From contig NW_027191406.1 of assembly GCF_041146345.1 (NCBI RefSeq), positions 62,001 through 126,000 on the forward strand: DNA of 64,000 nucleotides, given 5' to 3'. The translations under genes and the position numbers were made by a program. This document shows, piece after piece, positions 17,921 through 34,437 of the stretch (position 1 is its first letter; each line of letters begins with the position of its first letter). Below the pieces are notes generated by a model. The model made no database searches, was not told the origin of the DNA, and saw nothing but the letters and a program-made list of their open reading frames with translations. Origin of the DNA: Neodothiora populina (Eukaryota).

Positions 17921-18267
17921 GATATCCATACATTGTGGTATGCGAACATGATGTTGCAGGATACGAATACGGTTGTAGGGCATTGTAGGATGAAGAAGGG
18001 TTTTTTTTTTACTTTTTCGTTCGTGATCTGACTAATTGGCGATTCTCTATCCCTGTCGAACCTGGACTGTGAAGAACATGTGTTCGATGCTGGTACTCAC
18101 CCACCCCAGCTGTATAGAGAGCCAAGGGATATTTTATCATCATCCTAGCATCATTCATCTGTTCGTAATCTTTGGAAATACAGTCAGTGTTGATATCAGT
18201 GCCAAAAAGTGGTCGGTGAAGTCAATGCTTCAGACATACTCATACAGGACAACATTGGCAAAAGGTG

Positions 18268-18360
18268 TAGTCGCACTGGGGATCGAACCCAGGACCTTTC
18301 GCGCATTCAGAGTCGCTAGGACATGTGAAGCGAACGTGATAGCCACTACACCATGCGACT
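18268..18360 (-). tRNA. tRNA-Val (anticodon CAC) with a 20-nt intron after position 37
   Basis: Full cloverleaf: AGTCGCA TG GTGTAGTGGCTATCAC G TTCGC TT CAC A [intron] C GCGAA AGGTC CTGGG TTCGATC CCCAG TGCGACT A. Confidence 0.95.
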
Positions 18361-28400: not shown

Positions 28401-30670
28401 ATGCTCTTGGTCTGGCCTCGAACTGCCTTTCTTCAAAAATGTTAGTGTGTCCGAGTGATACATGTTTGATCTTACTGACTGTGGAGCAAGTTGGGCAATA
28501 CGAAACTCTGGCCTCATGCTCTTCCGAGCCCTCCTGGATCGTCTTCTAGGTACAAGCGAGGCTTATGTCGACCACGAGACCGCTCCACAAAGTCGTCTGT
28601 CCTTTAATGCTGTGCCGAACCTGATGAACGTCATATTCTCTCTAATATCACCACCCCTGGACAACACCGAAGATCTACTTACCGAGGGAGTATTTCCGGC
28701 GTTGCAACTTCTTCAGCGGACTCCGCCTCCCGCAGAGCATTTGTCGGCCGTGCAAGATGCGATTTTGAGACTCACGGCAAGCTCGCAATGGCACATCCGC
28801 GAAATAGCTGCGGAGACGTACGCGGTTCTGACTCATCAGACACAACGCTTAGCACGCGCTCTACAATTGGTAAGAGCTGAATATGTGTCAGCGAATGCGC
28901 TTCACGGAGCACTTTTGGCTGCGCGTTGTCTATTGCAAAGTCGCTATACGAAAGTGCAGCATGATGGTAAGTACGGAATCTACATCAGCTGCTGGCGAAT
29001 ACTGACGATCGAAGACCTTAGAGATATCTTTCAAGCATTGTGTGATGCAAAGGTAGCACTCTACGAAGCAAAATCATGTCCTTTTACGAAGGCGGCATTT
29101 GTCGATTTGTACAACGACTGGTGTCAAGCAGCATATCTCTCGCATCACAAGCTGCAGATCACTGGTATGTGCAGGTGGTAGCATGACTTATAACGCACGA
29201 CTGACCTATCGTTTTGCAGAGACCTTGCCACTTTCAACATCCGCAGAGCTGATTGCACTATTCCATCTCGATCGCGACACGTCGGCTGCGTGCTCAGCTT
29301 TGAGAGCGTCTCTCTCGGATGCATTATTACAGGAACATGCATATTTGGAATCCATTGACAAGTGCAATCTTTCCGACACCAGAGCTGCGCTCCTGGGATT
29401 GGCGGACTCTGATGCAGATGCTTGCACTACTGCACTCATTTCTGCATGCACCTCTTGCAGCAACAACCCCGAGTTTACTCGAATGTCACACAAACCTCTC
29501 GCCAGTGTGTGCGCGAGCTTGTTGTTTGACTCTGCTAGTTACACAGACATTGAAGTCCAAGCCGCGGCGCAAGATGTTCTTATTTCTTTACTGAACTCGA
29601 AAGAGGCTAGCGCCGTACAAGACATCCTTTCAGACAGCACTGAGGGTCTGTACTTGCCTTCGAATGCTGCGACGCCGCTATTTCAGGACGATAGGCTGGT
29701 GTTGCAGGGTGCTTTGCTCGATCTTCGTCTTTGCGGTACCGACATGACTGCACAATCGTTGTCAACCGATTTTCATGCCTGGATCAACGCTGTAAGAGCC
29801 GCGCTGCACGAAGACAATCCCTTCGACACCCGCTTTGCTGCCTCGCAAGCCGCTGCCAGGATACAGCAGGGACTTCGGGTTGTGTCCACAGCCCCTGCGT
29901 TCTCTACTCCATTCTTGATCTACTGTCTCACCGTGTATGATCTCACCAACGATGACGACGAGGAGGTCCGCAATCTTGCCGCACAGACAGCCTGCCGCAT
30001 CCTTCACGCGACGAGATTCTCCAGCCACGACCTCGACCTCGTTCCGCTTGCGGCGGGCGCTCGACTCGCGGGATTCATAGCACAACGCTTCGACACGGAC
30101 ATAACGCTCTTCGCCACAGCGACATCGCGTCTGATGGACGGAAAGGGAACTCCTCGAGAGGGTCCGTCAGTGCAACAAGCATTAGCAAACGCTAGCCGAC
30201 AAGACAGCGCGCTGTTCGTACAAGAGAAGCAGAATCTGTTCCTGGACGAGGTCAGAGAAGCGCGTTTGTGGTCGCAGGTGCTCATGCGCATGTCGCGCCA
30301 GGCTGTGTCACCACCAGATCTACACACACTATGCGATTGGACTACACATGGGCTAGAGACACTGCTCTCGAATCTGGACACAGAGGCAGATGGTCCTCTG
30401 GGGTGGAAGAGGCGACCGGACCTGTTCGTGCTCGGACTACAGGTCATCTACGCCATTGAAGCGTTGCTGGTTCTGAACAGAGACTGGCGAGGTGCGGTAC
30501 CGATCAGCGCAGCTGAAGTCAGAGATAGACTTGTGCGACTTTTGCAACGAGGACAGGCAAATGAGGTGCATCCGTTGTTGTTGAATCAGATCAGGAAAGT
30601 ACTGGCGAGGGCTGTTCGAAGAGGTGTGGGACATGTGGCGGCTGTCTTGCGCGGTATAGATAGAGCGTAG
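25430..30670 (+). CDS. TRM732: THADA/Trm732-like HEAT-repeat protein (DUF2428), partner of the tRNA 2'-O-methyltransferase Trm7; multi-exon, 5' exons tentative
   Basis: Motifs TRRSAGLP, LRHHGAFS, VHAMNCLKDMF, WAIRNSGLMLFRALLDRL, DPFDDVR, LF-x-x-EKQNLF; GT-AG introns link the long ORFs. Confidence 0.88.
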
Positions 30671-31611: not shown

Positions 31612-31830
31612 ATGAAGGCAAGCTACGCCGTAATCCTGGCCCTGGCGGTGATTTTCATCGGCATGGTGGCGTTCTGGTACTGGTGGACGAAGAGGCTTGA
31701 TGATTTACTTGTCGGGGAGGCGATCGCTGTTATGGAACTTGAGGGTGCTCGTTCTGATGGCCGTGAGCATGGTGGTGAAGATAATGGCGGCGGTGGTGGT
31801 GGTGGTCAGGGGGAACAAGGCAAGGGATGA
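31612..31830 (+). CDS. Small single-pass membrane protein (72 aa), hypothetical
   Basis: ACAATG context, N-terminal TM segment AVILALAVIFIGMVAFWYWW followed by basic residues, Gly-rich tail. Confidence 0.4.
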   Translation: MKASYAVILALAVIFIGMVAFWYWWTKRLDDLLVGEAIAVMELEGARSDGREHGGEDNGGGGGGGQGEQGKG

Positions 31831-32070
31831 TGATGGTATACATAACTTTTCAGTGGGAAAATCTGGACTTGGAGATGCATATGGTATAGACAGCGTGGCG
31901 TAGTCGGCAGCTTTGTTTGTGTGACTGAGCGCCATTCCGAGATGCAGGAAACAAATAATGATGAACCTTCTTACTATTTACTCTGCGTGCTTCGGCGTCG
32001 TGTCACACTGTATACACTCACTTTAGTCGCACGATAGACCAGTCTCGGAAAGTTGTTGTGCGATGGACGA

Positions 32071-32228
32071 GAGAAAGAAAGGCTCCACGCAGTGGCGCTG
32101 TCCGCGCAGGACATCAAGACTGAAGTAGGGGAATGATAGAGAGTGATTGATATACCAGACTAGAAATAGAAAGAGAGGCTCCATGCACCGTTCTGTCCGC
32201 GCAGGACATCAAGGCGGAAGTAGGGACA
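32071..32228 (+). repeat. Diverged direct repeat (2 copies, ~96-nt period), each able to form a hairpin
   Basis: AGGCTCCA...CTGTCCGCGCAGGACATCAAG...GAAGTAGGG at ~32080-32130 and ~32176-32225. Confidence 0.85.
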
Positions 32229-32421
32229 TATCTCGCGGACGTGAACAAAAGCAGATGAATGAGAACCTATAGCGTTTGGATATACTGTATAGCTGGCTAG
32301 TTAGGTTCCTGCTGAGCCGTAGTAGCCCTGCAGAAGTAGAAGTGTACAAGTGCGCTCGGGCAGCCTGCGTCTCAAAGTAAGGGTATATATCTCCCGAAAT
32401 CAGGACAAACCACAAGTCGAT

Positions 32422-32576
32422 TCCTGGCTGGTGTAGTCGAAACACCCCTTGCTGAACCTCATGCCGTATTACAGTACCAGGTGTCGCCCTCGGTCTCAAG
32501 ACCTAGTCAGCGCGCACACACTTCTTGGCGGCGACTTTGCGAGGCGTCGGCTACCGTTCGATTCCGGGGTCGGTGA
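32422..32576 (+). ncRNA. tRNA-like Pol III-type unit 1 (GAA at the anticodon position, ~81-nt insert, degenerate T stem); ncRNA or pseudo-tRNA
   Basis: TATATA at ~32384, A box TGGTGTAGTCG 32429-32439, D stem GTGT/ACAC, anticodon stem CCTTG/CGAGG, B box GTTCGATTC 32556-32564, acceptor 6/7 pairable, followed by T4 runs. Confidence 0.55.
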
Positions 32577-32662
32577 TTTTCTCCTTTTGCACTTCTTTTC
32601 AGGTGAGGAAAGGGTGGAAACAACCCTTGTAAGACCCCAGGTCAGCAGGAGTCTGTACCCGA

Positions 32663-32837
32663 TCCTGGATGGTGTAGTCGGTAACGCCCCCGCTCACGGC
32701 AAGCGATCATGGTCTCTATCTTGGTAAGTCATACCGGGCCCGATACCAGCTCAGCTGGTTGTAGTCGGCTTTTACGAAAATGATACGGGCTAGAGGTTGT
32801 GGGATGTCTGGGGTTCGATTCCGGGGTCACTTTTTTT
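32663..32837 (+). ncRNA. tRNA-like Pol III-type unit 2 (CAC at the anticodon position, ~99-nt insert, broken acceptor stem); ncRNA or pseudo-tRNA
   Basis: A box TGGTGTAGTCGG 32670-32681, D stem GTGT/ACGC, CCCGC/GTGGG stem, B box GGTTCGATTCC 32811-32821, T8 terminator 32830-32837. Confidence 0.55.
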
Positions 32838-33722
32838 TCTTTTGATCTGTTTTATTCCTGTGGATGTGCGTCGATGCTGCAGGGGCATTTGTTCTGATGT
32901 CTTTCGAGACAGTCCTGGGTCCATGTCGCGTGTTGTTCTTGCTGATCCACGTATTGTGATACAGCGGCATGCCATGCGTCTTGGATGACTTTTATACTCT
33001 TTCCGTTTTGTGTATGAAGAGTCATCAGACTTACTGGTATGCAGCGACCGCTTGATTCGGACTCGATCTGATGTCTGCACCGGAAGCGACAAGCAAATGG
33101 GAGTTTTACTGCTGCCTTGCCACGGTATTCCGACGAATGCAATCAGCTCACCGGCGTATTCGAGCAGGGGTTCCGTTTACCATCATCATTATCACCGTCG
33201 AATATAGGATGCCTCTAGTCTTGTCATCGAGTCATTGCGATCTGAGGGAAGCGTGCCAGGTCCCGATTCACGTTGTCGGATGATAAAAAGTGAGACGGGC
33301 AAGAAGTCTATGGCCTAAGGTAGGTCTATCTACTGTATCTAATCAATCAACAAAGAAGTGAAGTCGCGGTCGGAAGATCATCGGGAGTGAGTCATGGTGT
33401 ATCTCGGATCAAGCAGCCGGGCGGAGGTGGTTGTCGCTGTACTGTAAGTACAAGTACTTGTATAGCAGAAAGTCAACCTGTGAACCCTAGTGCAGGGCTG
33501 CCAAGAGCGACGCCTTCCCAAAAATTCCATCGTTGCTTCCGCGTTCGGTTTCGGTCGTGACGTGAGGCCAACAATTCGTCTCTATCTTCTCCATTTTCTC
33601 TATACCATCTTCCTATCTTCATCTCCATCCTGTGCTCTTCTTCCATCTGGTGTGCACCATAGTCGCCTTTCCTCTCTCCTCACATCTATTCACAAGAAAT
33701 ACAAACACAAAAACAGCAAGAG

Positions 33723-34437
33723 ATGGGTGTGTGGGACTCTTTCACAGGGCGCAAGTCGCAAACCTCGCCTTCGCCGTCTTCGGAAGAGACAGTGCAGGAT
33801 CCAGCAGCAGCAGGAAGCAACACGATTGATGCCTCAGACGTCTCGTCCTTCATGAACACCCCAGGCCTCTTCGATCCCGCTTCCCTACATCCTCTCGCCG
33901 GCCTCAACCAAGACACGCTCGACTACCTCAACCTCGACGACTCGACTCTCTCCGATCTGCCCGGCAACCAGAGCGCTCTTCCCTCGCGAGGCTGGTCCGA
34001 CGATCTTTGCTACGGCACCGGCACCACATACATTGCCGGTCTGACGTTGGGAGGAGCATGGGGTCTCGCCGAAGGGCTGAACAAACTGCCTTCCACCGCT
34101 CCGCCGAAGCTCCGCCTCAATTCCGCACTCAACTCGATCACGAGGAGAGGTCCCTTCCTGGGCAACTCTGCCGGAGTCATCGCCATGGTCTACAACGGCT
34201 TCAACTCTCTGATCGGTCACTACAGAGGCCAGCACGACGCCCTCAACAGCATCACCGCCGGTGCTCTGAGCGGCATGCTGTTCAAGAGCACAAAGGGCGT
34301 CAGGCCCATGATGATCTCAGGCGGCCTTGTGGCGACCGCCGCAGGTGGCTGGGCTGTGAGTCTATTATACATGTAGCCATAATCTGCTCATCATACTAAT
34401 TTGTCTCGCTCAGTTTGCACGCAAGCTCATCTTCTAG
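33723..34437 (+). CDS. TIM23: Mitochondrial inner membrane translocase subunit Tim23; intron 34356-34413
   Basis: LHPLAGL, LPSRGWSDDLCYGTG, KLRLNSALNSITRRGPFLGNSAG; the last exon reads FARKLIF*. Confidence 0.95.

Follow-up and report, generated by a model that had tools for sequence, protein, structure and literature searches.

Two tRNA-gene relics of yeast, ZOD1 (from a transfer RNA (tRNA)-Ile gene) and iYGR033c (from a tDNA-Arg), are still occupied by the RNA polymerase III (Pol III) machinery, and ZOD1 is weakly transcribed, according to the part of PMC5356446 drawn on here. The same part of that source describes TFIIIC as elastic with respect to the distance between A box and B box, with the B box as its chief binding determinant, and has transcription of tRNA genes start 10-12 nucleotides (nt) before tRNA position 1 and stop at T runs. 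Here we compare these systems with a tandem pair of tRNA-derived units in a 64-kb stretch of DNA from Neodothiora populina (contig NW_027191406.1, positions 62,001 to 126,000; hereafter the window, in which all coordinates are given). We think the chances about even that this locus is a lineage-specific tandem array of tRNA-gene relics, in which a type-2 Pol III promoter and terminators have been kept around an unconstrained spacer between the boxes. It comprises two well-kept units and probably one more that has decayed, repeating every 241-257 bp or so. Its features are as follows.

32384-32390 (+): TATA-like heptamer TATATAT, 32-38 nt before tRNA position 1 (32422) of unit 1
32419-32576 (+): unit 1, tRNA-derived shell, with 116 nt from the A-box 11-mer to the B-box block
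32429-32439 (+): A box of unit 1, an exact 11-mer common to unit 2 that fits the core TNGNNNANNNG
32447-32451 / 32540-32544 (+): anticodon-type stem of unit 1, which closes the insert
32459-32539 (+): insert of unit 1, 81 nt, inside the anticodon-type stem
32556-32571 (+): B-box block of unit 1, the same 16-mer as in unit 2
32577-80, 32585-88 and 32596-99 (+): three T4 runs 3' of unit 1, possible weak Pol III terminators
32661-32830 (+): unit 2, tRNA-derived shell, with 132 nt from the A-box 11-mer to the B-box block; the acceptor 3' strand is replaced by the terminator
32670-32680 (+): A box of unit 2, exact 11-mer
32757-32767 (+): third A-box-like copy, in unit 2, with 2 mismatches, 44 nt before the B box, lacking T1 and G3 of the A-box core
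32770-32773 (+): internal T4 of unit 2, just after the third A-box-like copy
32813-32828 (+): B-box block of unit 2, the same 16-mer as in unit 1
32831-32838 (+): T8 terminator of unit 2, T7 in the spanning Logan contig
32910-33065 (+): possible third, decayed unit, with TCCTGG at 32913, CTTGCTGA at 32938 and a B-box relic at 33050-33064

The evidence for this reading lies in the shell, that is, in what the two units share. An earlier note on this DNA had described a common shell with A and B boxes in both units, and our searches bear it out. The A-box 11-mer TGGTGTAGTCG occurs in the window exactly at 32429 and 32670 only, the B-box 16-mer GTTCGATTCCGGGGTC exactly at 32556 and 32813 only, and the two motifs stand in the same order in each unit. 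When up to two mismatches were allowed, TGGTGTAGTCG gave 30 matches in the window against 14.5 expected, two of them exact, and no further match to GTTCGATTCCGGGGTC turned up there with as many as three mismatches. Both A boxes have the core TNGNNNANNNG that PMC11724288 quotes, and the B boxes of both units keep the critical TTCGA core. A direct-repeat search found the 5' shell TCCTGG-N-TGGTGTAGTCG to be identical between the units at 17 of 18 positions, and about 34 of 36 positions of the shell overall are identical.

We then asked how this likeness is distributed along the units. Their alignment has a z score of 6.1, a score reached by none of 1000 shuffles, and the whole of this signal falls inside the shell; the interior, the 5' arms of the T stems and the 3' strands of the acceptor are randomised between the units. 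Decay has thus not been uniform, and with the shell far better kept than the interior, the suggestion that the locus is more than a case of simple decay stands. Shell identities of 16/16 and 17/18 beside a dissimilar interior are not what uniform neutral decay after a duplication would leave. These observations bear directly on an alternative in which the units are inert tRNA pseudogenes, dead copies with neither factor binding nor transcript whose intact boxes reflect age or luck. Such pseudogenes are known in fungi, with A. niger reported to carry 6 among 284 tRNA genes in the part of PMC6108506 drawn on here, and several results given below would suit them. The decay they would have to explain is very uneven, however, and we consider this explanation somewhat unlikely.

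Signals outside the boxes were also found where they had been described. A TATA had been placed about 35 nt upstream of the pair, and the TATA-like heptamer of unit 1 lies where a Pol III TATA could lie. TATATA has 21 occurrences in the window, so that its chance of falling in a 15-nt zone is about 0.5%; no such heptamer precedes unit 2 or the tRNA-Val gene found elsewhere in the window. The T8 run said to close unit 2 is present, although it reads T7 in the source organism's Logan contig, and so is the third A-box-like copy reported within that unit.

Both units derive from tRNA genes, as the earlier note had held, and in type the shell looks like that of a tRNA for an acidic amino acid. The D stems and anticodon stems can be paired as stated there. 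Shuffling produces a full 5-bp partner for the anticodon stem, at offsets of 8-12 nt before the B box, 780 times in 20000 for unit 1 (3.9%) and 413 times in 20000 for unit 2 (2.1%). Given anticodon-type stems at tRNA-like offsets, we conclude that the ancestor was a tRNA with extra sequence in its anticodon loop.

Neither unit can be a working tRNA. ARAGORN called neither of them at its default threshold, in default mode or in intron mode (0-200 nt), and at lowered thresholds it returned only poor, mutually overlapping models; the Rfam tRNA model, run on 1.2 kb with E values up to 10, matched neither. The sole tRNA detectable in the window is a nuclear-type tRNA-Val(CAC) at 18267-18360 (-), which scores 53.2 bits with the Rfam model. 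Its 20-nt intron is the genuine tRNA intron that had been noted for this window, and on its 3' side there is a T4 run and no longer T run. (In its default bacterial mode ARAGORN labels this same gene tRNA-SeC(tca).) The loss of decoding features that had been proposed for the two units agrees with the missing tRNA calls and with the broken T and acceptor stems. The T stems, already described as degenerate, form 3 of 5 pairs in both units. Unit 1 retains 6 of 7 acceptor pairs, three of them G-U. The acceptor of unit 2, rightly called broken, forms 3 of 7, and the T8 run starts inside the expected acceptor 3' strand.

The anticodon loops tell a similar story. Of the two anticodon-position triplets that had been read, GAA in unit 1 holds and CAC in unit 2 does not, positions 34-36 there being ACG. 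With the stem CCCGC/GTGGG, the loop of unit 2 is T-C-A-C-G-G-C, with C33, and CAC would require a register shifted by one that does not pair. The loop of unit 1 has U33 and the triplet GAA, with C37 where a purine is expected, and 11 nt rather than 8-9 separate its anticodon 3' arm from G53, a surplus of two nucleotides.

It had also been suggested that raw data might restore canonical stems. One Logan contig of the source organism spans 32086-33300 and equals the window at every base save one T of the T run, although the run behind it may be the assembly's own source and so not independent. The contig leaves the stems broken, and so, as far as the contigs show, sequencing error is not hiding canonical ones. 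These results leave next to no chance that we are dealing with normal, functional tRNA genes whose introns are unusually long. Such genes would account for the A and B boxes, the D stems and the anticodon stems; they would not account for the absence of any ARAGORN intron-mode or Rfam call, the T stems at 3/5, a unit 2 acceptor at 3/7 whose 3' strand runs into T8, the C at position 37 in unit 1 and at position 33 in unit 2, or the agreement of the spanning contig. The portion of the A. niger paper on which we draw knows of no fungal tRNA intron longer than 100 nt and discards ARAGORN models of that kind (PMC6108506). The missing tRNA call and the broken stems are, for their part, what inert pseudogenes would display.

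What lies between the boxes had been interpreted as structured cargo. Such a cassette would use the shell to drive Pol III, and tRNA-type splicing would then free the insert as a stable linear, circular or microRNA-like (milRNA-type) RNA. In favor of this idea, the inserts (81 nt in unit 1 and 99 nt in unit 2) do sit inside anticodon-type stems, and boxes and terminators are intact. The inserts are nevertheless unstructured beyond chance, with minimum free energy (MFE) z scores of -0.80 for unit 1 and +0.06 for unit 2, which contradicts the description of them as structured. Whole units fold no better: z is +0.85 for unit 1, which 162 of 200 shuffles equal or surpass in folding, and -0.59 for unit 2 (59 of 200). 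The helices pointed out within the inserts are present, then, but shuffled sequences fold as readily. The inserts are also dissimilar between the units: 747 of 1000 shuffles reach the global alignment score of insert against insert and 630 of 1000 the local one, and for the whole interiors the global score is reached by 304 of 1000.

The splicing step of the cargo idea fares no better. Splicing-endonuclease determinants had been thought retained, and yet the tRNA body from which the eukaryotic enzyme measures is defective. In the part of PMC6614914 drawn on here, biogenesis of the kind seen for tRNA intronic circular RNAs (tricRNAs) depends on a pre-tRNA that is competent for splicing and has both a proximal base pair and a 3-nt bulge, and fungi are said to follow a heal-and-seal route that phosphorylates and then degrades the intron. 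By that standard, the proximal pair between position 32 and the intron is absent from unit 1 (C32 opposite T or C) and is U-G only in unit 2, and the fungal route, too, speaks against the cassette. No box C/D or H/ACA motifs were noticed when the inserts were read by eye. We therefore regard the cargo-cassette idea as unsupported and highly improbable. Within the insert of unit 2, 32724-32764 (+) runs for 41 nt from GTAAGT to TAG, like a short fungal spliceosomal intron; its removal restores no tRNA, and the likeness is probably due to chance.

We also looked for further copies beside the two units. One period past unit 2 there is a TCCTGG (32913), with CTTGCTGA 25 nt on and a damaged B-box-like stretch at 33050-33064, and the order of these elements matches that in unit 1. 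When either strand of the window is searched, the composite TCCTGG-N17-23-CTTGCTGA is confined to 32422 and 32913. The alignment of the third unit is not significant: its global z score is 1.0, a level that 180 of 1000 shuffles attain, 189 of 1000 attain its local score, and among 416 real tiles 75 do equally well. On these tests we rejected the third unit as a firm claim; from its sequence elements, a third decayed copy one period downstream is possible. Should this copy be genuine, the insert is older than the duplication, and decay of the array has set in where boxes are lost. A third copy that has lost both boxes would also be in keeping with inert pseudogenes, as a sign that the array decays.

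Copy number and relatives were assessed in the source organism and in other fungi. The units are single copy: depth in the source organism's contigs is flat at 30-31 across 32132-33300, and in about 28 Mb of these contigs there is no second place for them at 80% likeness or more. This speaks against the proposal that they belong to a family of short interspersed elements (SINEs) or noncoding RNAs. Fungi do have low-copy, tRNA-related retroposons, such as AfuSINE2 of Aspergillus fumigatus, with elements of 140-493 bp of which one has an extra GGTTCGATTCC box, as given in the part of PMC5063351 drawn on here. If the units were SINE-like retroposons of that kind, one would look for a tRNA-unrelated body or tail after the B box, but the B box is at the 3' end, right before the terminator. 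No direct repeats bracket a unit among the seven direct-repeat families found, and the head-to-tail arrangement suggests local duplication rather than retroposition. Together with the single-copy depth, these points make SINE-like retroposons very unlikely.

With the Tim23-type open reading frame (ORF) next to the units as protein query, we collected 80 fungal loci at 64-84% protein identity. ARAGORN found a tRNA in none of the 80 (0/80), and none of their intergenic DNA aligns with that of the window. A loose search for A and B boxes in these loci gave 8 rows, each with 2 mismatches per box and none tRNA-like; likewise, the + strand B-box-like matches upstream of the Tim23-type gene in 8 loci were not tRNA-like on reading. 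A Trm732-type neighbor is present in 23 of the 80, always on the strand opposite the Tim gene, and was not seen in the other 57, which include the closest relatives. Synteny is therefore broken, and the result is to be read as no counterpart found, not as absence from orthologous loci. Within that limit, the lack of a counterpart in the fungi sampled would suit inert pseudogenes as well. A literature search, not in depth, found no description of such units. As a separate observation, the orientation of the Trm732-type gene suggests that the window's lineage carries an inversion or rearrangement beside the tRNA-like array.

In its DNA, each kept unit still has the parts that a type-2 Pol III gene requires (A box, B box and a T run downstream), and it has lost those that a tRNA requires as RNA: T stem, acceptor stem and the canonical geometry of the anticodon loop. 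If the locus is an array of relics with a working promoter, its operation can be set out step by step. TFIIIC would bind the B box, and its flexible linker would let it bind the A box 116-132 bp upstream as well; TFIIIB and Pol III would be positioned about 10 nt before GAT(T)CC. Termination at the T4 runs or at T8 would yield transcripts of about 170 nt, or a single read-through product of about 420 nt; depending on how the host reads T4, unit 1 may terminate itself or read into unit 2. The unit RNAs would be neither aminoacylated nor spliced. The sequence between the boxes would be an unconstrained spacer and not cargo, the promoter shell being what is kept. We infer factor binding, transcription and selection on the shell itself.

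Several results weigh against this account. At 116-132 nt, the A and B boxes stand farther apart than in yeast tRNA genes, for which the part of PMC5356446 drawn on here gives 31-93 nt. The internal T4 of unit 2 (32770-32773) has the same strength as the T4 terminators of unit 1 and tRNA-Val and may stop transcription before the B box. A scan of metagenome contigs for an A box, 105-135 nt and a B box gave 0 matches, and the 80 Tim23-type loci hold no credible pair of A and B boxes and no comparable unit. Finally, shell identity does not stop at the boxes but takes in another 9-10 nt ahead of the A box and 6 nt past the B box, and these two extensions are complementary to each other, which a pure DNA-promoter reading leaves unexplained.

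The last of these points raises the potential that the units are new tRNA-derived Pol III RNA genes whose RNA is functional, the 5' and 3' shell forming a terminal stem that is interrupted (8-9 bp, then 6 bp) and surrounds a variable core. Vault RNAs are Pol III RNAs with a terminal stem formed by their 5' and 3' ends, a box A near the 5' end and a box B near the 3' end. The locus would then encode an undescribed fungal Pol III RNA in which the shell is both promoter and a terminal stem of about 14 bp around a free core of about 100 nt, a layout like that of vault and Y RNAs reached independently. In the MFE fold of each unit, as in the RNAalifold consensus, GAT(T)CCTGG is paired with (T)CCGGGGTC and AGTCGR with TTCGAT in the B box, for about 14 bp in total. 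The terminal 9-mer of unit 2 pairs at 9 of 9 positions, as only 12 of the 63991 9-mers of the window would. The portion of the shell conserved past the boxes is exactly the portion that pairs, G-U pairs make the stem possible in + strand RNA only, and a unit 2 transcript would end at T8, just past the stem.

Other results do not favor a functional RNA. There is no covariation, with 14 of 14 shell pairs unchanged or changed on one side, the copies being identical in the stem. Overall folding is no better than that of shuffles, no Rfam family matches, the metagenome pattern scan brought up no relatives, and the complementarity was noticed post hoc. We consider such an RNA, with its predicted stem, unlikely.

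We return, then, to the array of relics with a kept promoter. If this reading is right, the locus is an ordinary by-product of tRNA gene turnover, and it carries a warning for annotation, in that tRNA finders at long-intron settings could call false tRNAs here. If the shell is in addition under selection, the locus would show, for an organism other than budding yeast, a tRNA relic maintained for occupancy by TFIIIC or Pol III, one conceivable role being that of a boundary that sets the Trm732-type gene apart from the Tim23-type gene. It could instead be the starting point of a new Pol III RNA.

The surroundings of the units show a window that looks eukaryotic and fungal. Both units lie on the + strand in a 1.9-kb gap between the end of a small ORF at 31830 and the start of the Tim23-type gene at 33723. 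By Pfam, the flanking genes, both on the + strand, are of Trm732 type (PF25151) and of the Tim17/22/23 family (PF02466). The Trm732-type gene, at 28462-30670 (+), is a partner of the tRNA position-32 methyltransferase. None of the four ORFs that overlap the units (0/4) matches any Pfam family, and we dropped a coding reading of the units on that ground.

The whole intergenic region is bracketed by a 20-nt inverted repeat, 85% complementary and built on ATGATGATGG, at 31827-31846 and 33170-33189. On the minus strand its right arm opens a stretch with boxes resembling C and D (33141-33188 (-)), which has a weak Rfam match to a C/D small nucleolar RNA (snoRNA; E 4.7, 13 bits). Motifs resembling box C also occur at 31826-31840 and 31958-31964. 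In the 1.2-kb search there were three weak snoRNA-type Rfam matches (E 0.5-4.7), one of them between the units on the minus strand. With 13-19 bits against gathering scores of 45-80, we rejected a snoRNA reading as chance.

Upstream of unit 1, by 200-350 nt, is a direct repeat at 32072-32130 and 32168-32225, about 95 nt apart, with 33 nt at 94% and 20 nt at 90% identity; the repeat holds two small palindromes, CCAC-GCA-GTGG and TGTCC-GCGCA-GGACA. Summed depth over the repeat core (32072-32114) rises to about 1480 against 31 in the flanks, and many contigs of the source organism end at its borders. From depth and contig ends, the core looks like a short dispersed repeat, about 43 nt long and present dozens of times. 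Run X7 (probably DNA) matches 32161-32328 only. Downstream, a piece 100% identical to 32878-33156 is present in runs X3/X4 of a second organism, and no other part of the stretch was matched there. This piece begins at a PstI site (CTGCAG, 32876-32881) and ends at a CCGG site (33151-33154). Given these restriction-site ends, we rejected it as an abundant RNA or conserved element and regard the pieces as fragments of a genotyping-by-sequencing (GBS)-type library.

Among described systems, the tricRNAs of animals resemble the units in that a tRNA-shaped unit transcribed by Pol III carries a long sequence in its anticodon loop, Pol III transcription being predicted in our case. The hosts of tricRNAs, as presented in the part of PMC6614914 drawn on here, are functional tRNAs with an intact body, the proximal pair and the 3-nt bulge, whereas the units have a defective body and unit 1 lacks the proximal pair. 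Circularization there depends on an RtcB-type ligase, and the host here is a fungus, with heal-and-seal joining and intron degradation (PMC6614914). AfuSINE2, to judge from the part of PMC5063351 drawn on here, shares with the units a fungal host, low copy number, tRNA relationship, Pol III boxes, the lack of a cloverleaf and a similar size. The units differ from it in having no target-site duplications and no body or tail after the B box, and in being tandem rather than dispersed and single copy. Vault RNAs are alike in the predicted terminal stem, the box positions, the variable core and the end at a U run. They differ in that there is no Rfam match, so the resemblance is one of layout only, and the structure here is predicted from two identical shells.

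ZOD1 and iYGR033c are alike in being decayed tRNA genes that encode no tRNA and keep an internal promoter, and by that likeness at most weak Pol III transcription is expected of the units. The yeast relics are bound by TFIIIC, TFIIIB and Pol III, as set out in the part of PMC5356446 drawn on here, whereas such binding is predicted for the units. They also differ from these relics in forming two, perhaps three, tandem units, in the 116-132 nt between their boxes, and in a shell that is identical between copies. Relics of tRNA genes with live-looking Pol III boxes are an already known kind, of which the locus described here may be a further case.

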